From an uncultured Acidobacteriota bacterium (GTDB lineage: Bacteria; Acidobacteriota; Thermoanaerobaculia; UBA5066; DATFVB01): DNA of 64,000 nt. Every line of letters starts with the position of its first letter. Within the stretch, counting starts at the first letter, position 1. The notes beneath the pieces are model-generated. The model was not told the origin of the DNA and did not search any database. It was given only the letters and a program-made list of their open reading frames with translations. The stretch spans positions 384,001 to 448,000 of the forward strand of contig CAWEYG010000002.1 of NCBI GenBank assembly GCA_963813155.1, read 5' to 3'. Shown here piece by piece: positions 30,238 through 56,007 of this stretch. The position numbers and the translations under genes are program-made.

Positions 30238-30269
30238 GGAGCGCGGACGATATCACGCGGGGTCCGAGC

Positions 30270-30375
30270 CCCGAATCGGCCGCCCGGCAAGGCGCTCCGC
30301 TCGGCAAGTCTTCTCGCGCCTCGGCCGCAGTTCGCTTTCCCTCGGCAGCTCGAAGACCAGCCTGCGCGGAGCGCC
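30270..30375 (-). repeat. Dispersed palindromic element, copy A (intergenic)
   Basis: 27-nt core 30319-30345 (CCTCGGCCGCAGTTCGCTTTCCCTCGG) identical to 52536-52562; stems GGCGCTCCGC/GCGGAGCGCC and GTCTTC/GAAGAC. Confidence 0.85.
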
Positions 30376-30383
30376 CTCGAGGT

Positions 30384-31178
30384 CTAGAACGTGCCCTGGA
30401 GGAGCCCTCCGTCCACGGCGAGCGAAACACCGGTGAGATAGCTCGCCCGGTCGCTGCAGAGGAACGCGGCGACCGCCCCGATCTCGGGCGGTTCGGCCGA
30501 GCGGCGGAGCGGAATCGTCTGCGAAGAGCGCTGCTCGTATTCCTCGACGGAGATCCCCGCCTCCCGCGAGCGGATCGCGGCGAGCTCGATCTGCCGGTCG
30601 GTCTTCACATAGCCGGGCAGCAGGGCGTTGACGAGGATCCCGTCCGGCGCGAGCTGGTTCGCCATCGTCTTCGTGAGGGCGGAAATCCCGGCCCGCAGGG
30701 TGCTGCTCACGGTCAGGATGTCCGACGGCTGTTTCGCGACGAAGGAGGTGATGTGGAGGATACGGCCGTGTTTCTTTTCCCGCATGCCCGGGATCACGAG
30801 CTTCGAGGTCCGGATCACGTTCAGGAGAGTGAGCTGAATGCCCTCGGTCCACTGCTCCTCGGAGAGATCCAGGAAGCGCGCCGCGGGCGGGCCTCCCGTG
30901 TTCGTCACGAGGATGTCGACGGAGCCGAGCGTTTTGGCCGTCTCGGCGTGCCAGCGCTCCAGCTCTTCGGCCTTCCGAACGTCGGTCGGGAAAGCGAGGA
31001 CTTCGCCGGAAGGATAGCGGGACCGCATCGCGTTCCTGGCGGTCTCGAGCGATTCCTTCCCGCGAGCGGAGATCGAAACGCGGCACCCCTCGGCGAGGAG
31101 AGCCTCCGCGATCGCGCGCCCGATCCCCTTGCTCGCCGCCGCCACCATGGCGACCCGGCCCTGAAGTCCGAGATCCAC
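30384..31178 (-). CDS. SDR family oxidoreductase
   Basis: AAASKGIG, VTNTGGPP, VNALLPG, YLTG..LAVDGG. Confidence 0.9.
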   Translation of the reverse strand: MDLGLQGRVAMVAAASKGIGRAIAEALLAEGCRVSISARGKESLETARNAMRSRYPSGEVLAFPTDVRKAEELERWHAETAKTLGSVDILVTNTGGPPAARFLDLSEEQWTEGIQLTLLNVIRTSKLVIPGMREKKHGRILHITSFVAKQPSDILTVSSTLRAGISALTKTMANQLAPDGILVNALLPGYVKTDRQIELAAIRSREAGISVEEYEQRSSQTIPLRRSAEPPEIGAVAAFLCSDRASYLTGVSLAVDGGLLQGTF

Positions 31179-31191
31179 TTTGCGCCGTCCT

Positions 31192-32203
31192 CTATCTCGA
31201 CGACGTCGGGGCCGCCGGCGCGTAGCTGATTTTTCGTTCGATCGAGCCCTCGAACGGCTTTCCGTCGACTTCCGCGTAGGGATACACGAAATAGTTCAGC
31301 GGCGGGCCCGCCTGCCGCGGCTCGAGCGTCAGGTCGCGCCCGGTGCTGAAACGGATTCGATTCGCGTCCAGGCTGCCGAAGAAGTAGTCGTGCTTCGCCG
31401 GCGCTTTCCAGGCCTCGGAGATGTCGACCGGAACCCAGCCCGTCTTGTCCAGGTAGAACTCCGCCCAGCAGTGGTATCCGGCGATTTCGCCCGCCGGCGC
31501 CTCGGCGAGCGGAAACCCGATCTCGAACCGCGCCGGAATTCCCTGGGCTCGCATGAGCGAGATGAACACGGAATGGAAATCGGTGCAGTTCCCGCGTCGG
31601 GAATCGCACGCCCACAGGGAGTCCCCGCGGCCCCAGCCTTCGCCTGACTTGTCGTATTTCATCGTCCGAAAGACGTAGTCGTAGATCGCGCGAGCTTTCT
31701 CGAGGGGCGAGACCTTCCCGGCCGTGATCTCGTCGGAGAGCTGGCGAAACTTCCCGTCGATCGGAACGAGCCGGTCGGCCCGGAGATACCGGCCGAGGTC
31801 CTGCGGCCTCGCGGCGGCGCTCGACGCTCCCGAGGCCGGTCCCGCCGAATATTCGCGGCGGCTCGCGCGAAAACCGAGGCGGAACCGAACGTCGGCGCGC
31901 GACGGGTCCGGAGACCTCGACGTAGAGCGATTCGTTGCCGTATTCCGGGTCGGTCGTCCGCCGCGTCGCGACGGCGCTCGTCACGCTCTTCAGCTCGACG
32001 GTCTGGTGATCGTCGCTCGAGGCCAGCGGAATCCAGATTCGCGCGGATTTCGCCGTCGCGGGGAAGTTCTTGAGAACGATCTCCTCCTGAAGGTCGAACG
32101 CCCGGCTCGCGTCCGGCTTCGCGTCGCCCTTCGAACCCGACGGGCCGACGGCCACGGCAGCCGCCGCCAGCAGGAGAACCCGGAAAATCGCCCGCCTCTT
32201 CAT
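31192..32203 (-). CDS. Secreted transglutaminase-like protein (frameshift near 31900)
   Basis: Signal peptide; RIWIPL; GNCTDFHS, YHCWAEF, WVPVD (Cys-His-Asp triad). Confidence 0.88.
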
Positions 32204-32224
32204 GAGAGTTTCATCTTCGGAATC

Positions 32225-33696
32225 TTAGACGTCGGGGGCGGGAAGGCGCAAGCCGCGCGGAATGAACGCGCGGTCGAGGCCCTGGAAGAGGAATTCGACC
32301 GCGAGCGCCAGGAGCGCGGCGGGAACCGCGCCCTGCAGGATCGTCGCGTGATCGTTCAGGTTGAGGCCGCTCAGGATCGGCTCCCCCAGTCCTCCCGCGC
32401 CGATCAGCGCCGCGAGCGTCGCGGTCCCGACGTTGATGACCGCGCTCGTCTTGACTCCCGCGAGAATCGACCGCGACGCCATCGGCAGGAGGACCTTCCG
32501 CAATTGCGCGCTTCGCGACAGGCCGATCGCTTCGGCCGATTCCCGCAGTCCCGGCGGGATGTCCTGCAGGCCCGTCGCCGTGTTGCGAATGATCGGCAGC
32601 AGGCTGTAGAGGAAAAGCGCAAGGATCGCCGTGGCGGGACGAATCCCCAGAAACGGGACGGGCACGAGCAGCGCGAGAAGGGCGAGCGCGGGGATCGTCT
32701 GGACGATTCCCGCCGCCCCGAGGATCACGCTTCCGGCGGCCGGTTTGCGAAAAGCGAGAATCCCGAGCGGAATCCCGGCGAGCACGGCGAACGCCAGCGA
32801 GATCGAGACGAGCTCCAGATGGCGCGCCGTCCACCGGCCGATCTGGGCCGCCGGGCTCCGCGCCGCGCCGGTTCGCGCGCCGAAGTACAGCGCCGCGGCC
32901 GCCGCGTAGTTTTTCGTGCGTTCGGCCTCCGCGTTCAGGCGCGTCATCGCGGCCTCGTCGAGCGTTCCGGAGAGGGACGCGAGCGCGGCGACGGCCGGGC
33001 CCGGGAGATCCGCGCGGTAGAGAAAAACGGCCTGGTACTGCGGAAAGTAGCCCCGGTCGTCCTGGAGAACGACGAGGTCGTCCTGCGCGATGCGCGCGTC
33101 GGTCGAGTACGCGTCCTTGACGTCGAGCGCCCCGGCCGCGAGCGCGGCGTAACCGATGGCATGGTCCACGCCGCGGACGTCGCGCATCGAAAGCGCGTAG
33201 CGGGCCGCGAGGGGCTCCCAGCCGTCCCGTCGCTTCAGGAACTCGTGGGTCAGGCCGACCGCGATCTCCGGGTGCCGCCGAAGGTCGCCGATCGTCCGGA
33301 TTCCGAGCTCCCCGCGCGCGTCCTCCGCATGACGAGCGCGTACGTGTTGTCGAAACCGAGGGGATCCGTCATCGAGACCCCGAGAGGCGCGAGCGCGGCT
33401 CGAATCGCGGCCAGGGACGGCCGGTCCGGGCGCCGCAGGATCTCCTCGGAGATCGTGCCCGTGTATTCCGGGTAGACGTCGATCGCGCGCGTTTTCAGCG
33501 CCTGCCACAGGATGATCGTGCCGCCCATTCCCGGCCGGTGCTCCGCCGCGACGCCGGCGCGGCCGAGCGCCGTTTTCGCGATCTCCGCCAGCACATACGA
33601 CTCCGTGAACTTCTTCGAACCGACCGCCACGGGGCGGGCTCCCGCACGCGTCGGGATCGCCGCGGCGAGAGACAGCAGCAGCCAGCGCCTCAGCAC
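32225..33696 (-). CDS. Osmoprotectant (glycine betaine/choline) ABC fused substrate-binding/permease (frameshift near 33325)
   Basis: VGSKKFTESY, DVYPEYTGT, GFDNTYAL, FPQY, QTIPALALL, IGAGGLG. Confidence 0.9.
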
Positions 33697-34457
33697 GACA
33701 GGCCCCTCTGCGATCGGACGAACTCCGCCACGAAGGGATTCGCGGGACTGTCCCGGAGATCTCCGAGCGAGCCTTCCTGGACGATGGACCCCTCGTTCAG
33801 CAGGACGATCCGGTCGGCGAGGAAGGAGGCCTCCGCGAGGTCGTGCGTGACGAGCACCACCGTCCGGGAAAGACGGCGAAAGATCTCGCGGAGGTCTTCC
33901 TGCAGCTTCGATCTCACCATGGGATCGAGGGCGGCGAGCGGTTCGTCGAGGAGGAGCAGCTCCGGGTCGAGAAGCAGGGCCCGCATCAGCCCGACCCTCT
34001 GGCGCTGGCCGCCCGAGAGTTCCGACGGATACCGGGACAGCGCGTCGAGAGGAAACCGCGTGAGCGCCGAGAGCTCCTCCAGGCGCAGCCGAAGCTCCGA
34101 CTCGCTCCTCCGGAGATGGCGGCCGAGCAGCAGGACGTTGTCCCTCGCCGTCAGGTGGGGAAAGAGACCCCCGTCCTGGACGACGTATCCGATCCCGCGG
34201 CGAACGGCGAGCGCGTTCCGGGGCGCGACCCTCTCGCCGCGGAACAGGACGGTTCCTTCGTTCGGAGGGGCGAGCCCGAGGACGAGGCGCAGGATCGTCG
34301 ACTTCCCGGAGCCGCTCGGTCCGATCAGCGCGACGGTCTCGCCGGGGAATACCCGGAGCTCCACCCCCGAAAGCGCGGGGGTGCCGCCGAAACTCTTGCG
34401 AACTCCGCGCAGCTCGACCAGCGGCTCGACGGGGGAAACGCTCGCTTGCGGCGGCAA
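33690..34457 (-). CDS. Osmoprotectant ABC transporter ATP-binding subunit
   Basis: GPSGSGKST, GYVVQDGGLFPHLT, LSGGQRQR, DEP, VTHD. Confidence 0.92.
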   Translation of the reverse strand: MPPQASVSPVEPLVELRGVRKSFGGTPALSGVELRVFPGETVALIGPSGSGKSTILRLVLGLAPPNEGTVLFRGERVAPRNALAVRRGIGYVVQDGGLFPHLTARDNVLLLGRHLRRSESELRLRLEELSALTRFPLDALSRYPSELSGGQRQRVGLMRALLLDPELLLLDEPLAALDPMVRSKLQEDLREIFRRLSRTVVLVTHDLAEASFLADRIVLLNEGSIVQEGSLGDLRDSPANPFVAEFVRSQRGLSC

Positions 34458-34473
34458 TTCGCCGAGATTATAG

Positions 34474-34506
34474 AAAAAAAAGCGCCGGATCTTCGCATCC
34501 GGCGCT
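34474..34506 (-). terminator. Rho-independent terminator
   Basis: AGCGCCGGAT..ATCCGGCGCT with a U8 tract on the minus strand. Confidence 0.85.
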
Positions 34507-34528
34507 CGAAAAGAAATCGCAGGAAGGG

Positions 34529-35167
34529 CTATTTCCGCAGGAGGTGCACTCCGGCGGCGCCGCCAACCGCGAGAAGGCCGACGAGTCCGAGGAGAGGAAG
34601 ATCGCTGGCGGTCTTCGGCAGCTCCGTCGGCGCGGGGGCCGGTTCGGGGGCGGGCGCGTTATTTTCCGCGATCGGCGCGGGAGCCGGAGCCGGGGCTTCG
34701 GCGATTTCCGTGGTCTTCGTTTCGGTCTGCATCGGGGTCTGCGTCACGGTTCCGACGTTCTCCGCGACCCAGGTCGCCTTGCCGCTCGTGAACTTCTCGC
34801 CCCACTCGTCGCCCGGATAGAACCAGGTGTCGAGAGCGGGATGGCCGTTCGCGCTCGTGTACGTGAACTGCGCCTGCTCGTCGGTCTGCTGCTTGGTGTC
34901 GAGGTTGCGGCGGACCTTCTGGGTCACGACGGTCGTGAGGATGTTCTTGTCGTTCTCGTCGCTGACCTGCACCTGCACCTTGCCGTCCTTGAAATCGAGG
35001 ACCTTCAGGGTGTACGTGCCGGGCTGCAATACCGTGCCGGACACTTCGGTCGGTTCCGAGACGTTGATCTTGGTGTTGCGCTGGACCGGCGTCGATCCCT
35101 GAGCCAGCATCAGGTTCGCGAACCCGAGGAACGCCATGGATGCGAAGAGGGTTTTCAGATATTTCAT
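34529..35167 (-). CDS. Secreted protein with LPXTA sortase sorting signal
   Basis: Signal peptide; LQPGTY, WFYPGD domain; Pro/Ala linker; ELPKTASDLPLLGLVGLLAVGGAAGVHLLRK. Confidence 0.85.
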   Translation of the reverse strand: MKYLKTLFASMAFLGFANLMLAQGSTPVQRNTKINVSEPTEVSGTVLQPGTYTLKVLDFKDGKVQVQVSDENDKNILTTVVTQKVRRNLDTKQQTDEQAQFTYTSANGHPALDTWFYPGDEWGEKFTSGKATWVAENVGTVTQTPMQTETKTTEIAEAPAPAPAPIAENNAPAPEPAPAPTELPKTASDLPLLGLVGLLAVGGAAGVHLLRK

Positions 35168-35231
35168 CGGTTTCTCCTTCAAGGGCGGAGAAATGCAAAT
35201 CCTCTGCCAGAAATGGAGCCTCCCCCGGGGC

Positions 35232-36395
35232 TCAGGAGGCGGGCTTGCGGAAGGCGGCGAGCAGCGTGACGTCGTCGTAGAGCTCCCGGTCCCCGGTGTG
35301 TCGGCTCACGGCGTCAGAGATCGTCTCGACGAGGGAAGACGCCGACGGCAGGGGCTTCTCGAGCAGGGCGAGAAGGCGATCCTTCGAAAAGAACCCTTCC
35401 GCGCCCTTCGCGTCCGTGACGCCGTCGGTGTACGCGAGGAGACACTCGCCCGGGTCCATCGTCTCGCGGGCGATCCCGAACACGGAATCGGGAAACAGCC
35501 CGAGCGCCGGTCCCGTCGGCGGAAGCTCCCGCCGGCCGCGGTGCGGTCCGAACACTAGAGCAGGCTCGTGCCCGGCGTTGACGTAAACGAGCGACCCGGT
35601 TGCGGGATCGAGCACGGCGAAGAACACCGTCGCGAACATGTTCGCTCGGCCGTGCGTCACGGCGATGTAGTCGTTCGTCAGGCGAATCGTCTTCTCGAGC
35701 GTGGCCTCGGCGGTCTCCGTTCGGGCTCCTCCGGCCGAGGCTCGCAGCAGCGTCCGAAACAGCGCCATGAACAACGCTGCGCCCACTCCCTTGTCGCAGA
35801 CGTCCGCGACGACGAGCCCGACGACGCCGCCGGGAAGATCGAAGGCGTCGTAGAAGTCCCCGGCGCACTGCCGGGCGGGCTCGAAGCGCGCCGCGATCTC
35901 CCACCCCTCCGGCTGCGGCAGGAATTCGGGAAAAAACGTCGATTGAATCTGGCGGCCGATCTCGAGCTCCCGTTCGAGACTCTGGGCGCGCGACCGCTCG
36001 CGATCGCGAAGGCGTTTCTTCTCGAGAGAGGCGTCGACCCGCGCCTTCAGGAGAGTCGGATTGAACGGCTTCGGAAGATAGTCCTCCGCGCCGAGTTCGA
36101 TACACCGGACGACGGTCTCCAACTCCTCGCTGGCCGAGATCATGATCACCGGGATGTGGCGAAGCGATTCGTCCGCCTTCATCCGCGCGAGCGCTTCGCG
36201 CCCGTCCAGCTCCGGCATCATGACGTCCAGCAGAACGAGGTCGAACAAGCTGCCCGCGAGCATTTCCAGCGCGACGCGCCCGTTCTCGGCTGCCGCGACT
36301 TCGTGCCCCTGTTTTTGCAGGCGGCGGGTCAGCACGTCCCGATTCATCTCGTTGTCGTCGACGACGAGGAGCCGAAAGGGAATCTCGCCGCTCAC
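35232..36395 (-). CDS. REC-PP2C (RsbU/RsbP-like) phosphatase
   Basis: VVDDNEMNRD..LLDVMMP..KPFN; GDFYD, ADVCDKG, NAGH, YTDG, DDVT. Confidence 0.92.
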   Translation of the reverse strand: MSGEIPFRLLVVDDNEMNRDVLTRRLQKQGHEVAAAENGRVALEMLAGSLFDLVLLDVMMPELDGREALARMKADESLRHIPVIMISASEELETVVRCIELGAEDYLPKPFNPTLLKARVDASLEKKRLRDRERSRAQSLERELEIGRQIQSTFFPEFLPQPEGWEIAARFEPARQCAGDFYDAFDLPGGVVGLVVADVCDKGVGAALFMALFRTLLRASAGGARTETAEATLEKTIRLTNDYIAVTHGRANMFATVFFAVLDPATGSLVYVNAGHEPALVFGPHRGRRELPPTGPALGLFPDSVFGIARETMDPGECLLAYTDGVTDAKGAEGFFSKDRLLALLEKPLPSASSLVETISDAVSRHTGDRELYDDVTLLAAFRKPAS

Positions 36396-37237
36396 CCGGC
36401 GGCTAGGAGCTTGCGCAGGTAGGGCACCTGTTCCCGGGCCGCGCGCTCCCCTTCCTCGATGATCATGGGGATCTTCGACGTCGCGAAGAGCCCGATCCGC
36501 TCCGGAAACGTCGGAATGATCGAGATGACTTCCGCGTGGTGGGCCATGCTGTGGAACGCGAAGTTCGAGCGGAGCAGGTTGTTCGTCATGATGCTGCTCA
36601 ACTGGAACGCGAAACGGGCCGCGGAGTTGATGGAGGTCTGGTACGGGCTCTCGAACCCCATCGCAACGATCACGTTCGCGCCTTCGCGCATCGCGACCCC
36701 GACCGGGAGGGGATCGGACATGAAACCGTCGATCAACAGCCGGCCGTCGATCGTCCAGGGCCGAAAGATGAAAGGAATCGCGATGCTCGCCCGGAGAGCG
36801 TCGACGACGCTGCCGCGCGAGAGAACGACCTGCTCGCCGGTCCGGAAATCGGTCGCGGTCAGGAACAGGGGGGTTTTCATGTCTTCGATCTTCTGGTCCC
36901 CGTAGGCGTCGCGAAGCCGCTGCAGGATGAGGCGGTCGTCTTTCAGGCCAAAGTCCTCCGAAAACCCGAGGACGCCCGGCAGGAACGCGCGCAGAAGAGA
37001 ACGGGTGTGCCGCTTCGCGGTCAGGTCGCGGGTCCACAGCCGGCGCGTCAGGTCGATCGCGGTCTCGACGTCGAGCCCGGCCGCGAGCAGGGCGGCATAG
37101 ATGCTCCCGCCGCTGCACCCGACGACGAGGTCGATGCCGATTCCCTCCGCCGCGAAAACCCTCTGAAGGCCGAGGGCCGCGGCGCACTTCACGCTGCCGG
37201 AACCGATGACGAGCGCGACGCGCTTCCCCGTGCTCAC
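36392..37237 (-). CDS. Patatin-like phospholipase
   Basis: ALVIGSGSVKC, GCSGG nucleophile elbow, ASIAIP, LIDGF. Confidence 0.88.
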   Translation of the reverse strand: MSTGKRVALVIGSGSVKCAAALGLQRVFAAEGIGIDLVVGCSGGSIYAALLAAGLDVETAIDLTRRLWTRDLTAKRHTRSLLRAFLPGVLGFSEDFGLKDDRLILQRLRDAYGDQKIEDMKTPLFLTATDFRTGEQVVLSRGSVVDALRASIAIPFIFRPWTIDGRLLIDGFMSDPLPVGVAMREGANVIVAMGFESPYQTSINSAARFAFQLSSIMTNNLLRSNFAFHSMAHHAEVISIIPTFPERIGLFATSKIPMIIEEGERAAREQVPYLRKLLAAG

Positions 37238-37573
37238 GATCCGAAGCTCGCGACCGCGGACTCGACGTCGGGAAAGATCTTCACGATGCTCGTGAACCCG
37301 GAGAGGTTGAGCACTTTCCAAACGTCCGGGCGCACCCCCGCGAGCCGGAAATCGCCCCCCTGCTGGCGCGTGTCCTTGACCGTCGCAAGCACCGCGCGCA
37401 GTCCGGCGCTGCTCATGAACTCGACCTCGCGCAGATCCGCGACGAGTTTCGTCCTTCCGGCACGGACTTCGCCGCCGAGCGAGGCGAGGAGATCGGCCGC
37501 CGTCAACCCGTCGACGCTCCCCTGGATCGCAACGACGGTTGGCACGTTCCATGGAAATGATCTCAATCTGCAT
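37234..37573 (-). CDS. STAS anti-sigma factor antagonist (frameshift near 37545)
   Basis: DLREVEFMSSAGLRAV (phosphorylatable Ser), VLNLSGF. Confidence 0.88.
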
Positions 37574-38021
37574 TCGGATCTCCCTTCGATTCTTCGAGAC
37601 GGCGATCGCGCCGCTTGACGAGCGTGAGGCGGTTTCCGCCGTCCGGGCTCGATTCGTACTCGACGCCGTCGACCATTTTCCTGATCAGCCACCAGCCGAG
37701 CCCGCCGATCTTCCGTTCTTTCCAGCCCGAGGCCAGGTCCGGCTCGGGCAGCGCCTCCGGCTCGAACGGCGCGGCCACGTCGGCGACCGTGACGACGAAG
37801 CGCTCCGGGTCGGAGCGGAACGTCAGCGAGATCGGCCCCGGTTCGCGGCCCGCGTAGCCATGCGTGATGACGTTGACGCACGCTTCCTCGACGGCGAGCT
37901 TCACCGCGAACTGGTCTCCCGCGCCCGCGCCGGCGCGCGCGCACGCTTCCGAAATGAAGTGGAGCAGCGCGGGGAGATTCTCGAGCCTCGCTTCCCGCGT
38001 GATCTCGCATTTCTCGGTCAC
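37563..38021 (-). CDS. Anti-sigma factor / Ser kinase (RsbW-like HATPase)
   Basis: LAVEEACVNVITHGY, D..APFEP, GGLGWWLI. Confidence 0.88.
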   Translation of the reverse strand: MTEKCEITREARLENLPALLHFISEACARAGAGAGDQFAVKLAVEEACVNVITHGYAGREPGPISLTFRSDPERFVVTVADVAAPFEPEALPEPDLASGWKERKIGGLGWWLIRKMVDGVEYESSPDGGNRLTLVKRRDRRLEESKGDPNAD

Positions 38022-38389
38022 GCCCGGCTCGCCAGGAGAGCTTCGATCTTGCCGAGGAGCCGGGGAAGGTCGACCGGTTTCGTGTCGAAATCGTCGCAAC
38101 CCGCCTCGAGGGCCCGGTCGCGATGCTCCGACATGGCGTGCGCGGAGAGCGCGAGGATCCGGATCGGCCTCGTTCGGGGATCGGCCTTGAGCTTCCGCGC
38201 CGCTTCCCAGCCGTCCAGCACGGGCAGGTTCAGGTCCATGAGGATCAGGTCCGGCGAATCCGCGGCAGCGCGGAGGACCCCTTCTTCGCCGTCGGACGCC
38301 GTCACGACGTCGAAGCCCTTGCGCGTCAGTCTCCGCGACAGCATGTCCCGGTTGAGCTCGTTGTCCTCGATCAGAAGGATCTTAGCCAT
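38018..38389 (-). CDS. Single-domain response regulator (DivK-like)
   Basis: [24 protein letters not shown]. Confidence 0.92.
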
Positions 38390-39905: not shown

Positions 39906-40018
39906 CTCACCCTTCTCCCGTCGCCGAAGATGAAGAGATCATACCGCGAAGGGATTGCGCTCCCGATCGCGCGGTCGCGAAGGAAACTTTCCCGCGCGGC
40001 CGGCCGTCGCCGGAAAGA

Positions 40019-40579: not shown

Positions 40580-40648
40580 TGGCGGGAAAGATAGCGAATT
40601 TCCGCCCGACTTGCACTGTTCTTCCGGACAGGTTGGTATCCTTTCGCA

Positions 40649-41491: not shown

Positions 41492-41547
41492 AGGACAGGT
41501 CCGAAAACCGCCAGCCGGCCGCGGCTGATCGTGCTTAAATCCGTCTC

Positions 41548-42996
41548 ATGGAGCTGGACGAGAGAACCTGTTACCGCGCGGTGACCGCGCGCGATTCGCG
41601 CTTCGACGGCCGTTTCTTCACGGGCGTTCGGACGACCGGAGTGTACTGCCGCCCGATCTGCCCGGCCCGCACGCCGAAGCTGGAAAACGTCCGGTTCTTC
41701 GCGTGCGCCGCGGCCGCCGAGGAGGCCGGGTTCCGCGCGTGCCGCCGCTGCCGTCCGGAGACCGCGCCCGGGACCCCCGCCTGGTCGGGGAAATCGGCGA
41801 CCGTCTCCCGCGCGCTGAGGATCATCGAGCTCGGAGACCGCGGCGATTCGGGCCTCGCGGAGATCGCGGGCCGCCTCGGCGTCGGCACGAGGCACCTGCG
41901 GCGCTTGTTCCGCGAGGAGCTCGGCGCGTCTCCGAAGGCGGTCGAAATCACGCGGCGCACGCACTTCGCAAGAAGGCTCCTGCAGGAGACGTCGCTCCCC
42001 GTTTCCCACATCGCGTTCACGGCCGGATTCGGAAGCATCCGGCGATTCAACGAAGTGATGCGCGAGACGTTCGGAGCTTCTCCGCTCGAGCTCCGATCCG
42101 GAACCGGCGCTCCCGCGGCCGGCCGCGCCGACGGCCTGCTGTCGCTCGAGATCCCGTTTCGGCCCCCGTCTCCCTGGCGTTCGATCGCGGGCTTTCTCGG
42201 CCGTCGCGCGATTCCGGGCGTCGAGCAGGCCGGGCCGCGCTTCTACCGGCGGACGTTTCTCGTCGGAAAGAGCTCCGGCGTCGCGGAGATCCGGCCGATT
42301 TCCGGGAAAAACGCGCTCGAGCTTCTCGTACCCGATGTCGCGGCGCAGGACCTCCTCGCACTCGCGGAGCGGGTGCGGCGCTTGTTCGACACCGATGCCG
42401 ATCCGGCCGTCATCGCGGGCCACCTCCGGCGCGATCCCGGTCTCGCGAGCCGGGCGAAGCTCGCCGGCATCCGGCTCCCGGGCTGCTGGGACCCGTTCGA
42501 AATGGGCGCGCGGGCGATTCTTGGCCAGCAGATCACGGTCGCCGCCGCGAGAACGCTCGCGGGCCGTCTCGCGGAGCTCGCGGGGCCGCTGCTTTCCGGG
42601 CAAAACGAAGCGCTGCAAAGGATTTTTCCCGACGCCGCGTCCGTCGCGGGCGCCGACCTCGGGAAACTCGGCGTGCCCCAATTGCGCGCCCGAACCCTTC
42701 GCGCGTTCGCGTCGGCCTGCGCGGACGGCCGGTTCGATCGCGCCTCGTCCGCCGGCCTGATGCCGCTGCTCGGGGAACTGACGGCGATCCCCGGGATCGG
42801 CGATTGGACGGCACACTACATCGCGATGCGCGCGTTCGGCGAGCCGGACGCGTTTCCGGCGGGAGATCTCTGGCTGCGAAGAGCATTCGCCTCCGGCGGG
42901 CGGGCTCCGTCGGCCCGGGAACTCGACCGGATTTCTCAACCGTGGCGGCCCTGGAGAGCCTACGCCGCCGTTTCTTTGTGGGAGGGAATGTCATGA
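41548..42996 (+). CDS. alkA: Ada Zn-binding / AraC / AlkA DNA-3-methyladenine glycosylase fusion
   Basis: [18 protein letters not shown], Ara[28 protein letters not shown]. Confidence 0.92.
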
Positions 42997-43514
42997 TGAG
43001 GGAAACGGATTTCGAGCGCGCCGAGGCGATGGATCGATTCTCGTCGCCGCTCGGAACGCTCTGGCTCGCCGCGACCCGCAAGGGAATCTGCGCGATTTCC
43101 TTCCGGGCCCCGAAGCGAAAATCGGCTGACAGCGACGGCCATCCCGAGGCCCGGAAGAACCTGAAAAACGCCGCAAAGATCCTCACCCGCTATTTCAAGG
43201 ACGGGACCGAGGCGTTCGACGAAATTCCGGTCGATTCCGAAGGAACCGAGTTCCAGCTCAGCGTCTGGAAAGCGCTTCGGAAGATTCCCCGCGGCCAGAC
43301 GCGCTCCTACGGCGACATCGCGCGCGCAATCGGCCGGCCGAAAGCCGTCCGCGCCGTCGGCGCCGCGAACGGGTCGAATCCCGTCGCGATCGTCGTTCCG
43401 TGCCACCGCGTCATCGGGTCGAACGGAACCATGACCGGCTACGGCGGAGGGCTCGAGAAGAAAGAATGGCTGCTCAAGCACGAGGGCGCCGGAGGCGCGA
43501 CGCTGCCGTTCTGA
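42993..43514 (+). CDS. ogt: Methylated-DNA-protein-cysteine methyltransferase
   Basis: [29 protein letters not shown]. Confidence 0.93.
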
Positions 43515-43518
43515 GCAA

Positions 43519-43568
43519 GGCCCGGGAGCGGCCGGGGCTGACGCGATTCGCGCAGGCTGGTCTAGAGA
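43519..43568 (+). repeat. Truncated left half (E) of dispersed palindromic element
   Basis: 15-nt exact match CGCGCAGGCTGGTCT to the reverse complement of copy A, preceded by GGAGCGGCCGGGG matching the outer arm of copy B. Confidence 0.55.
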
Positions 43569-43570
43569 CG

Positions 43571-45031
43571 CTAACCCAGGTCCGTCCAGACGGACTTGAC
43601 CTGCGTGTACTCGTGCATCGCTTCCTCGCCGCGCTCGCGCCCGAAGCCGCTCTGCTTGTATCCGCCGAACGGAAGGCCCGGATCGTAGAAGTTGTACGTG
43701 TTGATCCAGACGGTTCCGGCCTGGATCTCGCGCGCGACGCGGAGGGCCTTCTTGATGTCGCGCGTCCACACGGCCGCGGCGAGCCCGTACCGGACCCGGT
43801 TGCCGAGCGCGATCGCCTCGTCGACGGACCCGAACTCGAGCGTCGCGAGGACCGGGCCGAAGATCTCCTCCTTCGCGATCTCCATGTCGGGCGACACGCC
43901 GTCGAAGACCGTCGCCTCGAAGAAGGCGCCCTTGCCGCCGACGTCGCGCTTGTGACCACCGGCGACGAGCCGGGCCCCTTCCGCGACGCCGCGTTCGACG
44001 TATTTCGCGACCGTGTCGCGCTGCTTTTCGGACACGAGCGAACCGAGGCGGGTCTTCGGATCGAGCGGGTCGGCCGGAACGGCCTTCTTCGCGCGTTCGA
44101 CGAGCTTTTCCATCAGCGCTTCGTGGACGGACTTCTCGACGAGGAGACGCGAGCCGGCCGCGCACACTTCGCCCTTCCCGTAAAAGATTCCGTTGAAAGC
44201 CCCGCGCGCGGCGGCTTCGAGATCCGCGTCGGCGAAGACGATGTTCGGAGACTTGCCGCCGAGCTCCATCGAGACGCGTTTGACCGTCCCGGCCGCGGCT
44301 CGGAGAATTTTCTTGCCGGTCTCCGTCTCTCCGGTGAACGTGATCTTGTCGATCCCCGGGTGCTCGGCCATCGCCTGCCCGATGACTTCGCCCGGCCCCG
44401 GCACGACGTTGAAGGCGCCGGGGGGAAGGCCCGCCTGGCTGAGCAGCTCGGCGAACAGCAAGGCCGTCAGCGGCGTCAGGGACGCCGGCTTCAGGATCAC
44501 GGCGTTGCCGCACGCGAGCGCCGGAGCGATCTTCCACATCGCCTGCAGCAGGGGAAAGTTCCACGGCGTGATCGCGCCGACGACGCCGACCGGCTCCCGC
44601 AGCGTGAAGAGGAACGATCCGGCGCCCGAGGGCAGGGTGCGGCCATAGACCTTGTCCGCGTAGCCGCCGAAGTACGCGAGCGCCTCGGCGCACGCGGGCA
44701 TGTCGATCTTCGCGGATTCGAAAATCGGTTTTCCGTTGTCGCGGGTTTCGACGCGCGCGAATTCGTCGACTCGCGACATCAGGAGATCGGCCGCGCGGAA
44801 GAGCACCTTTCCCCGCTGGCGGGGCGTCATCTGCGACCACGGCCCTCCCTCGACGGACGATCGCGCCGCCTTGACGGCGGCGTCGAGATCTTCGCGGCCC
44901 GCCTCGGCGACCTCGGCGAGTAGCTCGCCGGTCGCCGGGTCGCGCGTCTCGAATCGCTTTCCCGACGCCGCGGATCGATAGCTGCCGCCGATGAACAGGT
45001 CTCTCGCGACGGGGGTCTCCGCGTTGCTCAT
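43571..45031 (-). CDS. Aldehyde dehydrogenase
   Basis: PWNFP, FTGETETG, ELGGKSP, GEVCAAG, EEIFGPV, PFGGYKQSGFGRE. Confidence 0.95.
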   Translation of the reverse strand: MSNAETPVARDLFIGGSYRSAASGKRFETRDPATGELLAEVAEAGREDLDAAVKAARSSVEGGPWSQMTPRQRGKVLFRAADLLMSRVDEFARVETRDNGKPIFESAKIDMPACAEALAYFGGYADKVYGRTLPSGAGSFLFTLREPVGVVGAITPWNFPLLQAMWKIAPALACGNAVILKPASLTPLTALLFAELLSQAGLPPGAFNVVPGPGEVIGQAMAEHPGIDKITFTGETETGKKILRAAAGTVKRVSMELGGKSPNIVFADADLEAAARGAFNGIFYGKGEVCAAGSRLLVEKSVHEALMEKLVERAKKAVPADPLDPKTRLGSLVSEKQRDTVAKYVERGVAEGARLVAGGHKRDVGGKGAFFEATVFDGVSPDMEIAKEEIFGPVLATLEFGSVDEAIALGNRVRYGLAAAVWTRDIKKALRVAREIQAGTVWINTYNFYDPGLPFGGYKQSGFGRERGEEAMHEYTQVKSVWTDLG

Positions 45032-48566: not shown

Positions 48567-48654
48567 CCGGCGGATCATACGCGAACGGGTCCGCCCAACG
48601 GCCCGCGTTCCGGGCAGATTGCCGCGCGGGACCCGATCCGGTATGTTCGAAGCG

Positions 48655-50525
48655 ATGGCCGATCCCATCAGCTCCGTGACCGGTACCAAAGGCGGCCTCG
48701 CCGTCGCTCCCTCGCTGGAGCCTTCGATCGAGACCGCTCGGACGCCGCCCCGGACCCCGACCGTCGACCGGAGGGTCGTCGTCCTCAGCGTCTGGGCGAT
48801 TCTGATCGGGTTGGGCGCCGGCCTTGTGGCACGAGCTCTCGTGCTGCTGATCGGTTTCATCACGAACGTCTCGTTCTACCACCGGCTCTCCTTCTCGTTC
48901 GCCTCGCCGGCCGGCAACAAACTCGGCGCCTGGGTCATCCTCGTTCCGGTCATCGGAGGCCTCGATCGTCGGTTTCATGGCCCGTTACGGCTCGCAAGGC
49001 GATTCGCGGACACGGGATTCCCGAAGCGATGGAACAGGTCCTGCTCAACAAGAGCCGGATCTCGCCGCGGGTGACGTTTCTGAAACCGCTCTCCGCCGCG
49101 ATCGCGATCGGAACCGGCGGCCCTTTCGGGGCCGAAGGCCCGATCATCGCGACCGGCGGCGCGCTCGGCTCCCTGCTCGGACAGCTCCTCGAGACGACCG
49201 CGGTCGAGCGCAAGACGCTCCTCGCCGCCGGCGCCGCCGCGCGGGATGGCGGCGACGTTCGGAAGCCCCGTTTCGGCGGTGCTCCTCGCCATCGAACTGC
49301 TCCTCTTCGAGTTCCGCTCCGCGATCCCTCGTGCCGGTGCGCTGGCGCAAGCGCGGCGGCGACGGGCATGCGCTTCTTTTCGTCGGAACGGACCCCGTCT
49401 TCGCGATGTCCGAGCTGTCGACAGCCGAGGCGGCGTCGCCCTCGCGCTCTACGTCGCCCTCGGCGCGATCATCGGCGTCGTCGCCGTCGCTGTGACTCGG
49501 GCCGTCTATTCGTCGAAGATGCGTTCGAGCAGCTCCCGATTCACTGGATGTGGTGGCCGGCGATCGGCGCCGTCGCGGTCGGCGTCGTGGGATGGATTCT
49601 TGCCCCGCACGCTCGGCGTCGGCTACGACAACATCGACACGATTCTCTCGGCTCGCCTCACCGTCGAGGCTCTCGCGCTGCTCGGAGCGCTGAAGTTCCT
49701 CTCCTGGTCGATCTCGCTCGGCAGCGGAACGTCCGGCGGGACGCTTGCGCCGCTCTTCACGATCGGCGGCGCGATCGGCGCCCTGCTCGGCGAATGGCCT
49801 GCGCGCGCTGCTGCCGTCCGCGGGGATCGACGTTCGCATCGCCGCGCTCGTCGGAATGGCGGCGATCTTCGCGGGCGCGTCGCGGGCGCTTCTGACATCG
49901 GTCGTCTTCGCGTTCGAGACGACGCTCCAGCCGCTCGGCTTGCTGCCGCTCCTGGGCGGCTGCACGGCCTCGTTCCTCGTGTCTTCGCTGCTGATGCGGG
50001 ACAACGATCATGACCGAAAAGATTTCGCGGCGCGGAGTCCGCGTGCCGGCCGACTACGAAGCGGATTTCCTCGGGCAGGTGCTCGTCCGCGACGCCTGCT
50101 CCCGAGACATCGTCTCTCTGAGCACGGAACAGACGCTCGACGAGACCCGAAGTTGGATCGCGTCGGGAGCCCCGGGGACTTCCCATCAGGGTTATCCCGT
50201 CGTCGACCGGAACGGAACGCTCGCGGGAGTGCTGACCCGGCGGATCCTGCTCGATCCGAAACATGACGGCTCGAGAAGTCTTCGCGAGCTGCTGACGCGG
50301 CCCCCGGCCGCGGTCTTCGATGACTCGACGCTCCGGGAGGCCGCCGATCACATGGTCGGCGAGGACGTCGGCCGGCTTCCCGTCGTCGCTCGGGATCAGC
50401 CTTCCCGCGTCATCGGTTTCATCACCCGGGGCGACCTCCTCGCCGCGCACCGGGGGAGGCTCGACGCCTCCTCGAAACCGGAACGCGCGATCGCGTGGAC
50501 CCGAAAGGCCGCTCCGAAGGCCTGA
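48655..50525 (+). CDS. CLC-family chloride channel/transporter with CBS pair, many frameshifts
   Basis: [29 protein letters not shown]; C-terminal CBS (GYPVVD, RLPVV, ITRGDLL). Confidence 0.88.
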
Positions 50526-50532
50526 TCCTCCG

Positions 50533-52477
50533 ATGGCAAGGCGACTCTCGAGCCCGATCCCTCTCCGGACGAGCCTTCTCGGAGCCTCCGCGTTTCTCGT
50601 ACTGACTGGCTGCGCATCCCGGCCGGCGGCTCCGACTCTCGAGGAGTACACGCGGGGCGCCTCGCCGATCGCGGAGGAAGCGGCCCGCCTTTCGAGAGCG
50701 ACGCGGATTCGCCCGGGTTCCGGCGGCCCGAGAGCGGCGGCCTGCTCGACGCCGCCGAACGATGGCGGGCCGAGGCGGACGGCACGAGAGTCGAAAGCTG
50801 GATCGTCGACTTTCCCCGGAAGCCGTCCCGGGCCGCGGTGATGAGAATTCGCGTGAGCCTCGAGGGAACGCAACGGGGAGAACGCGGCGTCCGGCTCTCG
50901 GCCGACGAGCTGTTCGACCTCGACCTCTCGCGCGAGAAAACCCGGTGGACCATCGCCGGAGCGCGGGCGGTCGACACGCCCCGGATTCTCCGCGGACGGC
51001 CGCATCTGCGCGAGGTCGCGTCGGAGATCGGGCTTTCCGCGGCACTCAACGATTCGGTCGATCCCGCGGAAGCGACGAATCTCTGCATCCCCGCGACTCA
51101 CCATCATCCCGGAGTCGTGCTCGCCGACTTCGACGGCGACGGCTCGATCAACGTCGTTCTCCCGGGCGCGCATCCCCGTCTCTTTCTCAACGACGGGCAT
51201 GGACATTTTCGGGACGCGACCCCGGGCTCGGGCCGGTGACGCTTCCTCCCGGAGAAGCGGCGGGCGGCGTCGCGGCCGACCTCGACGGCGACGGGCTGCC
51301 GGAGCTCTTTCTGACGTACGCGTATTCGGATTGCCGCCTCCTCCACAACGACGGGAACGGCCGGTTCCATCGCGGATGGGCCTTCGCCGCCTCGGCGTGC
51401 GACTTCGACGGCGACGGCGACGACGACCTGTACGTCGCGAACGATTTCGGCACGAACTGTCTCTACGAAAACGTGTCCACGCCCGGTCGGCCCCGGTTCC
51501 GCGAGATCGCGAAGAAGGCCGGCGTGCTCGACGACGGCTATGGGATGGGTGTCGCGTGGGGAGACTACGACGGCGACGGCCGCTTCGATCTCCACGTCTC
51601 CGATTTCTCGTCTCCCTACCGGTGGATGATCCGGTCTCCGCTGCTGCCAATGCCGCCGGTTCCAGCTTTCGTTCAGGCCGTCGCGCGGCCGATCGTCGTT
51701 CCGATGCTGCTGCGCCGCTGCGCGGGAGACGGCCTCTACCGGAATCGCGGCGACGGAACGTTCGAGAAGACTTCCGCGAAGGCGGGAGTCGCCGAGGGGG
51801 GATGGGCGTGGGGGACCGAATTCGTCGACCTCGACGGGGACGGTTTCGAGGACCTGCTCGTCGTCAACGGAATGTGGGAGGCGTCTCCGGGCGGGAAGTG
51901 CGACGAGGTGAAGTTCTGGAACGACATGTCGGCGGAGGGGATTGCGTTTCACGACGGGTTCTGGGGCGGAATCGATTTCGGCCGCAACGGAATGGCGTCC
52001 CGGACGGCGAAGCACCTCTACCGGAACCTCGAGAACGGGAAATTCGAGGACGACGCGTACGTCGAGGGCTTCGACACGCGCGGCGACACCCGGGGGCTCG
52101 CGTTCGGCGACCTCGACGGCGACGGCGCGCCCGAGATTGTGCTCTCGACCTTTCGCGGACCCCTGCTCGTCTATCGCAACGGGTGGAACGCCGCCCGGCG
52201 CCTCACGATCCGCCTGGAGGCGACCGCCGGCCACAACCGGGACGCAGTGGGAGCCGTCGTAAGGCTCTCGGCGGCGGGAAAAACGCAGATCCGCGAGGTC
52301 CGCGCCGGCTCGTCGTTTCTCTCCTGTTCGGCGAAGGAGCTCTACTTCGGCCTCGGAAGCGCCGAGAAGGCCGATTCGATCGAGGTTCGCTGGCCGGACG
52401 GGAAACGCGAGACGCGGACCGATGTGCCGGCGGGGAGGTTTACGTGGAAAGAGGAACAGAGGGAAAACGCCCGATGA
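50533..52477 (+). CDS. CRTAC1 / FG-GAP + ASPIC-UnbV lipoprotein (frameshifts near 50720 and 51235)
   Basis: LTGC lipobox; DFDGDG repeats; NRDAVGAVV...GSSFLS...FGLG...RWPDG. Confidence 0.85.
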
Positions 52478-53220
52478 GGCTCGCTCGTCCCGGATTGCGG
52501 CCAGCCCCAGCGCCAGCTCGGCAAGTCTCTTCGACCCTCGGCCGCAGTTCGCTTTCCCTCGGAATCTCAGAGATCAGCCTGCGCCGGCGCGTTGGCCCCC
52601 GGCCGCTCCGGCCCTGGGTGGTCTTGATTTTTCTTGTGGCGGCACCCGTCTGCGCTTCCGAAAAAGCCCGCGCGTTCCGCGTCCGCGTCGGCAGCGAGTC
52701 GGTCCGCGTGATCGTCCCGAAGACGTTCGAGCCCCTTCTCCCCGGCTCGGTCTACCCGAATCGCCGAAAGCCCGCGGACGCGCGGCGGCTCCCGATCGCG
52801 ATCCTCGCGCCGGAGACCGCTCCGCCCTCGAATTCCTCCTCGAGCGGCAGTTTCTCGTCGCGGTGCGCCACTCCGCGACGGTCGAGGATCTTCTCGGGGC
52901 ACTCGCCTCCCGGCCGGAGGCGGACCCGGGCCGCGCCGCGATTTTCGTTTTTCGCGAGGCCCAGGTGCTGCCGGCCGCGATCCGCGCGATCGCGATCTTC
53001 GATCCCGATCTCCGGGTAAACCGGCCGCGGCCTTCTCTTCCCGTCGCCCTTTTCCTCCGGTCGCCGCACCTCGTTTCCCTCCGCGGAGCTTTCCCGCGAT
53101 CTGAACGGCCGCTTTCGGGACGCATGCCGTCGAGAAGTGGTACCGGGGCGAAACGGGTTTTCCGAAGCAGGCCTACCGCGACGCCGCGGAGTGGGCGGCA
53201 GACGGATCCTCTCGCGTTAG
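52474..53220 (+). CDS. Hypothetical secreted protein (frameshifted) carrying element copy B in its N-terminus
   Basis: ATGA coupling to the upstream gene; hydrophobic VVLIFLVAAPVCA; the end is inferred across frameshifts. Confidence 0.5.
52489..52611 (-). repeat. Dispersed palindromic element, copy B (123 nt, in frame)
   Basis: Core 52536-52562 identical to copy A; stems CCGGA/TCCGG, GCGGCC/GGCCGC, GCGCC/GGCGC, GTCTCT/AGAGAT. Confidence 0.85.
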
Positions 53221-53231
53221 AATCAAAGGTC

Positions 53232-56007
53232 ATGGCGGATCCGTCCCCGAAGTCTCGAAGCACTGTCCTCCAACCCTGGCAACGCCGGATCTACCAGATC
53301 CTTCTCGTGCCTCTCGGGTTGATCGCCGCCGATTCCATCTACCTCGTTTCGTTCACGAAGTACTCGTCGTTTTTCATGGCGATGTTGCTGCTGCACCTCG
53401 TGCTCGGGCTCCTGCTCTCCATACCCTTCTTCGTCTTCGCTTTCACGCACGCGCGGAAGATGATCCGAACGCGAAACGTTCGCGGCGAGAGCACGGCCGG
53501 CCTCGCGATGGCGCGTCCCTCCGCGATCATTGTCACCGTGACAGGCCTTCTCATGACCTTCAAGGGCGCGACGATCAAGAACCGGCCGATTCTATTTTGC
53601 GCACGTGTTCGCGACTCCGCTTGCGCTCATCGCCTTCGTCCTTCACCGCCGGGCGCACTCGCACCAAATGGCGTTCAAGAAGCTCTTTGCCTGGGGCGGA
53701 GGGGTGGCGGGGTTCCTCGCGGTCATGGCGCTGCTCCACCTGACCGAAAAGCCGCCGCGGCGGGTCGTCAACCGGAACGGCGACACGCAGTTCTTCCTGT
53801 CGTCGGCCGAGACGTTCGACCAGGGACTGCTCGATCCCGCGAAGCTCTCCGCGAACGGCTACTGCCAGGAGTGCCACCCGCACGAGCTACGCGCGCTGGC
53901 CGAAATCGGCCCACCTCTTCAGCTCGTTCAACAACCCCTTCTACCGGCGCTCGGTCGAGCTGATGGCCGACAAGGTCGGCCGCGAGAAGACGAAGTGGTG
54001 CGCGGGCTGCCACGACCCCGTCGTTCTCTTCTCGGGCAAGATGGGCAAGGCGACGCTGCAGAAATTCACCTACGACGACTTCGAAGCCCAGCAGGGGCTG
54101 ACGTGCATGTCGTGCCACTCGATCGCGCAGGTAAAGGACGTCGGGCAACGGCTCCTACGTCATCGAGGATCGAAGCAGTATCCGTTCGCCTTCGCGTCGA
54201 ACCGGTACCTCCACGAGGTCAACAAGCTCCTCATCCGGATGGAGCCGTCGCTCCACCGTCAGACGTTCATCAAGCCCGTCATGCGGCAGCCGGAGTTCTG
54301 CTCGACGTGCCACAAGGTCGCGCTCTTCCGCCCATGAACGACTACAACTGGCTGCGCGGCCAGGACCACTACGACTCCTGGTAGGACTCCGGCGTCTCGG
54401 GCTTCGCGGTGCGGTCCTTCTACGACCCGCCCGCGCCGAAGGCGTGCCGCGACTGCCACCTGCCGCCCTTTCCGTCCGACGAGTTCGGGAACCGCGGCGG
54501 CTTCGTCCACGACCATGCCTTCCCGGCCGCGAACACCGCCCTGCCCGCCGGCGCGGGGACGCGAGACGGCGAATCCCCCGAGAAGTTCCTGAAGGGGTCG
54601 CTCACGGCCGACCTCTTCGCGATCCGGCGCGGCGGCCAGGTGATGCCGATCGGACCGGAATCCGGCGCTCGTCCCGGCGAGACGGTCGGCGTCGAGGTCG
54701 TCGTGCGCACGCGGAAGCTCGGCCACCAGTACACGAACGGCACGGCGGACTCCAACGAGACGTGGGTCGCGTTCTCCGCTGACAACGGCGAAAGACTCGT
54801 CGACAGCGGAACGCTCGCCTCCGACGGTCGTCTCGACCGGCGGCCGACCGCCTTCGCAGCTCGTCCTCGACCACACCGGCCAGCCGATGGACCGCCGCCA
54901 GCCGCCCGAGATCCACACGGGCCTCTACAACAACGGGATCGGGCCGGGCGCCGGGGCTCGCGCGTGCGCTACGCGCTTCGGGTGCCGCGCGAGGCGCGCA
55001 GGGGCCGTGACGCTGTCGGCGGCCGTCGAACTACCGCAAGTTCTCGCGCGATTACTCGATCTTCGACGGGCGGCTCGAATGCGCCCGAGCCTTCCCGTCA
55101 CGGAGATCTCGCGAGACTCGGTGACGCTGCGGTTCAAGTTCGAGGGACTCCGGCACGGGTGTCGGCCTTCGAGATCCCGAGGGAAAGCGAACTGCGGCCA
55201 GGGTCGCGAAGGCTCGACACGCGGGGCGGAGTCCCGACCGGAAACTCGGACAAGGCGTGGCTCCGCTGGAACGACTACGGCATCGGCCTGTTCCTGCAGG
55301 GCGACCTGAAAGGCGCCGAGGCCGCCTGGGCGCAGGCGCGAGCTCCTCGCTCCGACAAGCCGGACGGACCGCTCAACCGCGCCCGCGCCCTGATCCAGGA
55401 AGGCAATCTGGCCGACGCGGAGACGGCGCTGAACGAGGCGGAGCGGCGGCGGCCCGGCTGGCCGAAGACGGCGTTCTTCCGCGCGACTCTCGAGAAAGAG
55501 CAGGGCCAGCTCGATGCTGCGCTGAAGGACATGAACCTCGTCGCCGCGAAGTTTCCGAAGGACCGCGTCTGCTGGAACCAGATCGCGCGGATCCTGTTCC
55601 TCCAGGGCAGGTACGACGACGCGCTGCGCGCGATCGAAAGCGTCTACGCGATCGACCCGGAGGACCTCTCGGCCCACTACAACGCGATGCTCTGCTTCAA
55701 GGCGCTGGGCCGAAAGCCGGAAGGGCTCGTCGAAGAGCGCTGGTACAAGTACCACAAGGACGACGAGACGGCGGGCGCGCTGATGGCCCAATTCCGCCGC
55801 GACCATCCGTTCGCGAATCGCGAGTCGCTGCCGATCCACGTCCACGACGACGCCGCGCCCGTCGCTCCGCCTCCCCCGCCGTGGATCTCGCAGATCGGGC
55901 CGAAGGGGTACGCGTACAAGGGGTACGCGCCGCAAGGCGAGAAAGTCCTCCACGACGACCGCCCGCCCATGGTCATGCCGCCGCTCGTGCCCGCGAAGTC
56001 GAAGTAA
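53232..56007 (+). CDS. Membrane-anchored multiheme cytochrome c + TPR protein (frameshifts, one in-frame TAG)
   Basis: N-terminal TMs; five CxxCH motifs (CQECH, CAGCH, CMSCH, CSTCH, CRDCH); HAFPAANTA, GTADSNETW; RWNDYGIG; TPRs. Confidence 0.85.
55144..55235 (+). repeat. Dispersed palindromic element, copy C (inside cytochrome-TPR gene)
   Basis: Core CCGAGGGAAAGCGAACTGCGGCC at 55177-55199; stems GGGACTCCG/CGGAGTCCC, GTGTCG/CGACAC, GCCTTC/GAAGGC. Confidence 0.85.

Follow-up and report, generated by a model that had tools for sequence, protein, structure and literature searches.

Layered palindromic repeats in an uncultured Acidobacteriota genus: a probable family of gene-less inserted elements

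A 64,000-nt stretch of a metagenome-assembled genome (MAG) from an uncultured Acidobacteriota bacterium of the class Thermoanaerobaculia (contig CAWEYG010000002.1, positions 384,001 to 448,000; hereafter the window) carries three copies, A, B and C, of an irregular palindrome built around an invariant 23-nt core, CCGAGGGAAAGCGAACTGCGGCC. These copies are probably members of a genus-restricted family of gene-less palindromic interspersed repeats that has spread by insertion. Such repeats are similar to miniature inverted-repeat transposable elements and are of the same kind as repetitive extragenic palindromic (REP) sequences, bacterial interspersed mosaic elements (BIMEs), ERIC sequences and Rickettsia palindromic elements (RPEs). 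Copies are gained and lost at orthologous sites, accumulate in tiny gene-end spacers and occasionally lie in frame in tolerant linkers or loops of proteins. The element behaves as insertional DNA rather than as an RNA gene, as indicated by the filled and empty sites, the intergenic position of 39 of 43 copies, the location of 20 of 43 copies at a convergent stop and the two in-frame copies within genes.

The window corresponds to C2:384001-448000 of the source genome G000, which comprises 3,809,457 bases in 23 contigs at 66% GC. Two further genomes, G001 and G002, belong to the same genus, and the sister genus is represented by G003-G005. The completeness of G000, G001 and G002 is 90.8%, 78% and 99%, respectively; G002 is flagged as unpublished, and every statement on G002 depends on that genome. 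Several contigs of G000 (C10, C13, C17, C18, C23 and part of C4, C4:1-8200) are strain variants, 93-97% identical to parts of C2 and C6, and second versions of the regions around copies A, B and C are present among them. The presence of these second versions indicates that the MAG mixes close strains or species.

The core was found at exactly the three positions given by a first-pass annotation of the window, where no occurrence is expected. No further match with up to three mismatches is present in the window, and none of 100 dinucleotide-preserving shuffles contained a match. The same annotation was accurate in stating that copies A and B share 27 identical nt, namely the core plus GAGG, and the arm pairs that it listed (GTCTTC/GAAGAC, GTCTCT/AGAGAT, GCCTTC/GAAGGC, GGCGCTCCG/CGGAGCGCC and GGGACTCCG/CGGAGTCCC) are all present. 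G000 as a whole contains 35 exact copies of the core, or 41 when up to four mismatches are allowed, and a profile search with nhmmer (E<1e-4 for counted copies) returned 43 copies. The dispersal of the family is genome-wide, as had been predicted; its abundance is moderate rather than high, with 43 copies in 3.81 Mb or about one per 89 kb.

The element is an irregular hairpin of 95-135 nt with strongly covarying stems. Read in core-sense order, the parts of a full copy are GAGCGAAG, a variable outer stem that has a conserved GAG/CGA internal loop, CGGGGCCAAC and the inner stem, which is typically GCGCCGG. CGCA-GGC then leads to the core hairpin (TGGTCTCTGAGATC-core-GAGGGTCGAAGAGACT), which is followed by T-GCC-GAG, by the strands that complete the inner and outer stems, and by GAGCGAA, the motif that brackets the variable outer stem. 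This design is layered. A conserved frame (..GGGGCCAAC-GCGCCGG-CGCA / GCCGAG-CCGGCGC-TGGGGCT..) encloses an apical module, which is either the 58-nt core hairpin with the invariant 23-mer or an unrelated hairpin of ~115 nt that we call mod2. Short forms, to which copies A and C and the in-gene copies belong, have only a 6-9-bp inner stem and the core hairpin. Mean column identity is 0.99 in the core, 0.87-0.89 in the rest of the inner hairpin and 0.59-0.63 in the outer arms. The core is not the sole conserved part, since the whole ~75-nt inner hairpin is kept.

To quantify the pairing, a covariance model was seeded on the minimum-free-energy fold of one copy, and 71 copies from G000, G001, the MAG record L081 and 22 metagenome contigs were then aligned. 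In these copies, as fitted to the model, 91.5% of the pairing cells are complementary compared to 78.0% after shuffling, and none of 500 shuffles reached the observed value. The compensatory stem changes noted in the window copies are real across the whole family: 35 of the 43 base pairs show changes on both sides, with 348 such cells observed and 111 expected in the 71-copy alignment. When the partner was slid by 1-3 columns, pairing fell to 34-42%. An alignment-independent test gave the same picture, with a copy's own left and right arms folding at -48.2 kcal/mol and arms taken from different copies at -40.5 kcal/mol; 0 of 10,000 permutations were as good. A separate idea, that the arms are copied from the local flanks at insertion, was rejected, as the score was 9.75 against own flanks and 9.95 against those of other copies, and 3914 of 5000 permutations equalled or exceeded it.

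The distribution of the copies relative to genes is uneven. By the same gene calls that place 39 copies outside predicted open reading frames (ORFs), the intergenic share of G000 is 13.7%. In the 20 copies next to a convergent gene, the stop of that gene lies at most 40 nt from the GAGCGAA end, and in 12 of these the distance is 1-5 nt. The abutting stops are TAG in 11 cases, TAA in five and TGA in four, so that TAG or TAA accounts for 16 of 20, compared to 35% genome-wide (893 of 2525 stops; TGA 1632, TAG 611, TAA 282). The binomial tail for this excess, calculated by hand, is ~6e-5. Copy orientation is not tied to that of the neighbouring genes (by eye, ~12 copies between tandem genes are sense and 6 antisense). 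A replication-strand bias of the kind looked for in IS200/IS605 elements was absent, with 20 of 43 copies in one orientation relative to GC skew.

Filled and empty versions of orthologous sites were found between close relatives. An insert of ~330 nt on contig C12 of G001, consisting of mod2 plus frame and core, is matched by 5 nt in G000 (C11:29067-29073). An insert of ~150 nt in G001 (C14:460449) is matched by contiguous flanks in G000 at C2:180537/180538, and within G000 the copy at C6:221720 faces an empty site on a strain-variant contig (C4:3167-3183). At the site of copy B, the two flanking genes overlap without any spacer in G003-G005; the spacer holds mod2 in G001 and in the strain variant C17, and the element in G002. 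The two empty sites that could be resolved to the base are both convergent stops sharing CTAG, and in one filled/empty pair CTAG has become CTA-[insert]-TAG. The CTAG at the empty sites, this allele and the TAG/TAA excess suggest insertion at TA. GAGCGAA is found on both sides of most copies and is a constant motif, not a variable duplication.

GAGCGAA was also considered as a genome-wide REP in its own right. This was rejected, as its intergenic enrichment is only mild (279 of 1350 occurrences, relative to 13.7% of the genome). Immediately upstream of full copies there is often a small hairpin module, TTCGCTC-N18-20(GGGGCYCC)-GAGCGAA. A regular-expression scan gave 16 matches, of which ~10 are of that type, for example at C6:152076, C5:135592, C2:56262 and C10:8072 of G000 plus ~6 others.

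Two independent copies are located in frame within genes. One lies in an inter-domain loop of CtaA/COX15 (C1:630796; Pfam E=1.4e-37) and the other in a linker of a multihaem-cytochrome/TPR protein (C17:15864, the counterpart of window copy C). In both cases the ORF stays open and the core is translated as PEGKRTAAE. Both sites are nhmmer-positive only in G000, and the inserts are absent from the orthologues in G001, G002 and G004; at the position of copy C, the cytochrome/TPR orthologues of these genomes are ~70-90 nt shorter. The C17 variant is an intact ORF of 927 aa with the element in frame within the linker. The gene is likewise one uninterrupted ORF in G001, G002 and G004, and its product is ~910-940 aa long in all four versions. 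In the window, the gene (52614-56007) is frameshifted and split into several ORFs, including 53963-54337 and 54409-56007, so that it is either a pseudogene or affected by assembly frameshifts. The in-frame gene insertions, which resemble those of RPEs, and the filled and empty orthologous sites support the first-pass proposal of a non-autonomous inserting element.

The second apical module, mod2, is itself an abundant palindromic hairpin family. It has the ends GCGGGT...ACCCGC and 63 nhmmer matches in G000 (for example C1:122347-122454, C17:13188-13296 and, just beyond the window end, C2:448034-448133), and it gave no Rfam match. Most of mod2 is solo, with 42 solo clusters compared to six clusters in which the same frame arms enclose a reversed mod2 instead of the core hairpin; this arrangement also occurs in G001. 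Exchange of the two modules at a single locus, with the arms conserved, was seen three times. At C4:8002 (core) and C6:226855 (mod2) the flanks are 97% and 91% identical, and the G000 copies at C5:246641 and C5:199060 (both core) have G001 orthologues with mod2. In the closest pair, C4 and C6, the exchanged tract takes in the inner stem with several differences, which is more in line with gene conversion through the arms than with a fixed cut site. Frame interiors in G000 measure ~72-77 nt with the core and ~136 nt with mod2, and a regular-expression scan that was too loose to be decisive returned no convincing empty frame. Two copies (C1:351235-351614 and C2:72204-72432) have the left stem of their core hairpin split by a third, unrelated insert of ~110 nt, which contains a CCCCTCTCCCC...GGGAGAGGG-type repeat.

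Two further arrangements were observed in G001. At C11:455210-455470 and C11:456385-456645 (L028 and L029), a different, lower-GC sequence of ~150 nt is joined to a normal right frame arm and may be a third kind of apical module. At C16:84352 (L026), the site orthologous to C1:77419 of G000 holds mod2 and a frame whose interior is deleted between two CCGGCGC repeats, and this frame is in the opposite orientation to the G000 copy.

The family has a narrow range. The covariance model matched 2 of 151 genomes of the class, equivalent to one of 67 genera. Among 41 genomes searched by BLAST, full-length matches were confined to G000, G001 and G002, and three other genomes gave marginal matches of 26-42 nt. 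The exact core was found in 22 metagenome contigs from soil or rhizosphere, in many cases at the end of the contig, and in no viral contig. Public records with the exact core are titled as Thermoanaerobaculia or Acidobacteriota MAGs, plus one titled Alphaproteobacteria (L081). The latter has a single short-form copy on a 412-kb contig, 96% identical over 84 nt to G000 copies with otherwise unrelated flanks; it could reflect horizontal spread or a mislabelled bin.

These observations can be combined into a model. New copies would arise by DNA insertion catalysed in trans by a putative enzyme other than a Y1/RAYT (REP-associated tyrosine) transposase. Insertion would probably occur at TA, often inside the CTAG formed by meeting convergent stops. 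Apical modules may then be swapped between copies by ectopic recombination or gene conversion via the common arms, and the hairpin with its invariant loop may be retained as a single-stranded or cruciform form recognised by mobilising or host machinery.

Several points weigh against spread by insertion. Three of the 43 copies are duplicated on strain-variant contigs, which leaves ~40 distinct loci, and the gene positions come from our own crude codon-bias caller, which marked ~87% of G000 as coding. Just two empty sites are resolved to the base, and the second fits the TA model only with an extra indel. TA flanks many copies but not all, copy B abuts TGA, and neither the termini nor any target duplication is cleanly defined. 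The covariation statistics exaggerate independence, as the copies are kin and alignment A2 had been made to fit the structure. Strong covariation would also be compatible with an RNA, as would the more stable fold of the core-sense strand in 42 of 43 copies (mean -81.0 compared to -67.6 kcal/mol) and the predominance of G-U over A-C cells (209 to 62; 107 to 62 once the two consensus G-U pairs are set aside). Finally, no mobiliser was recognised. TnpB (PF07282), DDE_Tnp_1 (PF01609) and the IS630-type DDE_3 (PF13358) each gave no match in G000, a six-frame search for the Y1/RAYT transposase (PF01797) gave none in G000, G001 or G002, and the AT-rich terminal inverted repeats of the IS30 family are unlike the ends of the element.

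The first-pass annotation was right that no mobilising gene lies in the window, and none is identifiable in G000 either; at the completeness of G000, the absence of genes is not proven. One IS110-family gene is present and is not near any copy. The sole multi-copy insertion sequence (IS) in G000 is of the IS30 family, with seven near-identical copies of ~1070 bp encoding a 336-aa HTH_38 + rve transposase. BLAST of the flanks against the genome gave no copies flanking a shared gene, the arrangement of an autonomous element, and returned only strain-variant contigs and other small repeats. As an aside, the IS30-family copies (C1:496k, C1:492k, C2:661k, C3:888k, C4:79k, C5:214k and C8:20k) each adjoin a GTCATTCCCGCG...CGCGGGAATGAC-type palindrome.

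The features shared with RNA raise the question of whether the family is instead a multi-copy structured non-coding RNA, either a small RNA or a cis-acting 3' or 5' UTR element, with the invariant purine-rich loop presented to a protein or to target mRNAs. We regard this as unlikely. Beyond the covariation, the strand-specific folding and the G-U excess, it would account for a loop conserved at 0.99 between variable arms and for the tandem G-A/A-G internal loops that recur in the alignments, as judged by eye. However, orientation is independent of the neighbouring genes, the window copies show neither a sigma-70-like promoter nor an excess of terminators, and the hairpin has no trailing T-run. 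Intrinsic terminators numbered 0 in 29000-32000 and 3 in 50000-57000, against a shuffle-based expectation of 5.7 for the latter region; one of the three touches the end of copy B but draws on flanking coding sequence. An RNA gene also sits poorly with two independent copies translated in frame within ORFs, with the substitution of an unrelated hairpin for the apical module and its invariant loop at orthologous sites, and with filled and empty sites between close relatives. The Rfam check that had been proposed, with Acido-1 and Acido-Lenti-1 included, matched no family, and at E<=1 six loci covering both modules gave only one noise match, to a human lncRNA model. A hammerhead-like reading of CUGAGAU...GAAAG, made by eye, was dropped, as the motif misfits and has no Rfam match.

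The module exchanges are open to another interpretation, in which the frame is a docking site and the core and mod2 are cassettes moved by a putative hairpin-loop-specific recombination without a known transposase, the 23-nt loop being a putative protein recognition site. This seems quite unlikely to us, and it is very unlikely that the internal loop of the frame, CGCA/GCCGAG, is the recombination site for core, mod2 and other cassettes and is served by a putative dedicated recombinase. The same frame does hold core or mod2 at one locus in close relatives, with the junctions always beside GCGCAGGC.. and ..GCCGAG. The two classes of interior length without a convincing empty frame, the third element that interrupts the core hairpin in two copies, and the similar termini of both modules (GCKGGT...ACYYGC, by eye) point the same way. 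Against this, the tract exchanged between C4 and C6 includes the inner stem, which fits gene conversion better; mod2 is far more often solo than in frames; and no candidate recombinase is linked to the copies. If docking were true, it would represent a new class of structure-targeted mobile DNA in Acidobacteriota.

The comparison with REP/RAYT systems made by the first-pass annotation was not supported: although the family is palindromic, mostly extragenic and mosaic in a BIME-like manner, with outer arms that keep structure rather than sequence, a REP/REPIN family moved by RAYT (Y1 HUH) acting on single-stranded hairpins is highly improbable and largely refuted. PF01797 was found in none of the three genomes of the element-bearing genus, whereas the sister genus, which lacks the element, has it in two of three genomes; 6 of 14 reference genomes served as positive controls. 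No GTAG, CTAC, CGTC or GACG is contained in the consensus built from 42 copies, the unit is 95-135 nt and not 20-40 nt, and GC skew reveals no orientation bias.

Insertion of a gene-less repeat remains our preferred reading for the window copies, whose coordinates are listed in Table 1. Copy A consists of the inner stem, GGCGCTCCG/CGGAGCGCC, and the core hairpin without the outer frame. It is located between an SDR gene (30384-31178, minus strand) and an ABC-F ATPase gene (28612-30237, minus strand; both by Pfam), and a paralogous or strain-variant counterpart is present on contig C18. Copy B has the outer frame arms and the 58-nt core hairpin, and separates the stop of an FG-GAP/ASPIC gene (51236-52477, plus strand) from the start of the multihaem-cytochrome/TPR gene within whose linker copy C sits. 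A half copy had been proposed at 43519-43568. This is a genuine left-arm remnant by local alignment (scored against the copy at C2:498880; 200 shuffles), but neither the covariance model (E=0.33) nor nhmmer gave it a significant match. It comprises the left frame arm and GGTCT/AGAGAC, the foot of the core hairpin, with the interior and right arm absent, and it is flanked by genes for MGMT (42942-43514, plus strand) and an aldehyde dehydrogenase (43571-45031, minus strand; both by Pfam). A diverged copy proposed at 3996-4054 is unsupported, being recovered neither by nhmmer at E<=1 nor by the covariance model at E<=10; its best local score was 24, and the region falls within a HAD-hydrolase ORF. 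Four soil or rhizosphere DNA contig sets compared with window positions 50800-56200 were fragmentary, with depth peaks only over the two elements, and contained no contig bridging an empty site.

Table 1. Positions of the palindromic element, its core and an arm remnant in the window.
Feature	Position (nt)	Strand	Evidence
Core of copy A	30323..30345	-	exact match
Core of copy B	52540..52562	-	exact match
Core of copy C	55177..55199	+	exact match
Copy A, short form	30260..30397	-	covariance model 100 bits, E=2e-24
Copy B, long form	52470..52620	-	covariance model 127.3 bits, E=1.1e-31; also nhmmer match
Copy C, short form with diverged arms	55119..55269	+	covariance model 73.1 bits, E=3e-17
Left-arm remnant	43515..43568	+	local alignment score 36, shuffled maximum 19

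The core and mod2 together provide ~100 fast-turnover markers for an uncultured soil lineage. These repeats interrupt assemblies at contig ends, reshape the spacers of operons and insert stretches of peptide into proteins, and in annotation such hairpins should not be called RNA genes or terminators. Their abundance without a recognisable mobiliser and the clean exchange of modules at single loci make the family a useful case for the spread of transposase-less palindromic repeats.

Proteobacteria, Neisseria, pneumococci and Rickettsia all have well-described small palindromic repeats. The family resembles the RPEs, which are palindromes of ~100-150 nt found in intergenic regions and in frame in unrelated protein genes that stay open. 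In-frame gene insertions without a known dedicated transposase are described for the RPEs (PMC3733652, PMC10969869), as is a CGTC tag (PMC3733652). In contrast to the RPEs, the present family lacks a CGTC tag and resides in a free-living lineage of soil Acidobacteriota. Its intragenic share, 2 independent loci of ~40, is far below that reported for RPEs, and the architecture of frame and apical module is specific to this family. With the REP/BIME sequences of proteobacteria it shares gene-end extragenic palindromes, mosaics of several motif types and the retention of structure over sequence. It differs from them in that no RAYT was found in the three genomes and no GTAG tag is present, in a unit 3-5 times longer and in modules placed inside a single hairpin instead of next to each other.

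The ERIC, Correia (NEMIS) and pneumococcal BOX/RUP/SPRITE repeats are likewise imperfect palindromes of ~100-200 nt, located mostly at gene ends with occasional intragenic copies. Size variants of such repeats stem from internal gains or losses of sequence, and TA duplication is a feature of Correia and IS630-type elements. As differences from the ERIC, Correia and BOX repeats, neither a parent IS nor an IS630-type DDE_3 was found in G000, the present family has no promoter-like hexamers, and its TA duplication is only suggested. Insertion of elements into one another, which the present family shares, is described for these repeats (PMC10969869). Acido-1 and Acido-Lenti-1 of Rfam are structured repeated motifs from the same phylum, but a cmscan of the window matched neither at the gathering threshold. 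A search of the literature on Acidobacteria and Thermoanaerobaculia gave no account of such repeats. Collectively, these comparisons identify a new family of a known kind of bacterial repeat, whose unusual points are its layered design of frame and module and its lack of a recognisable mobiliser.

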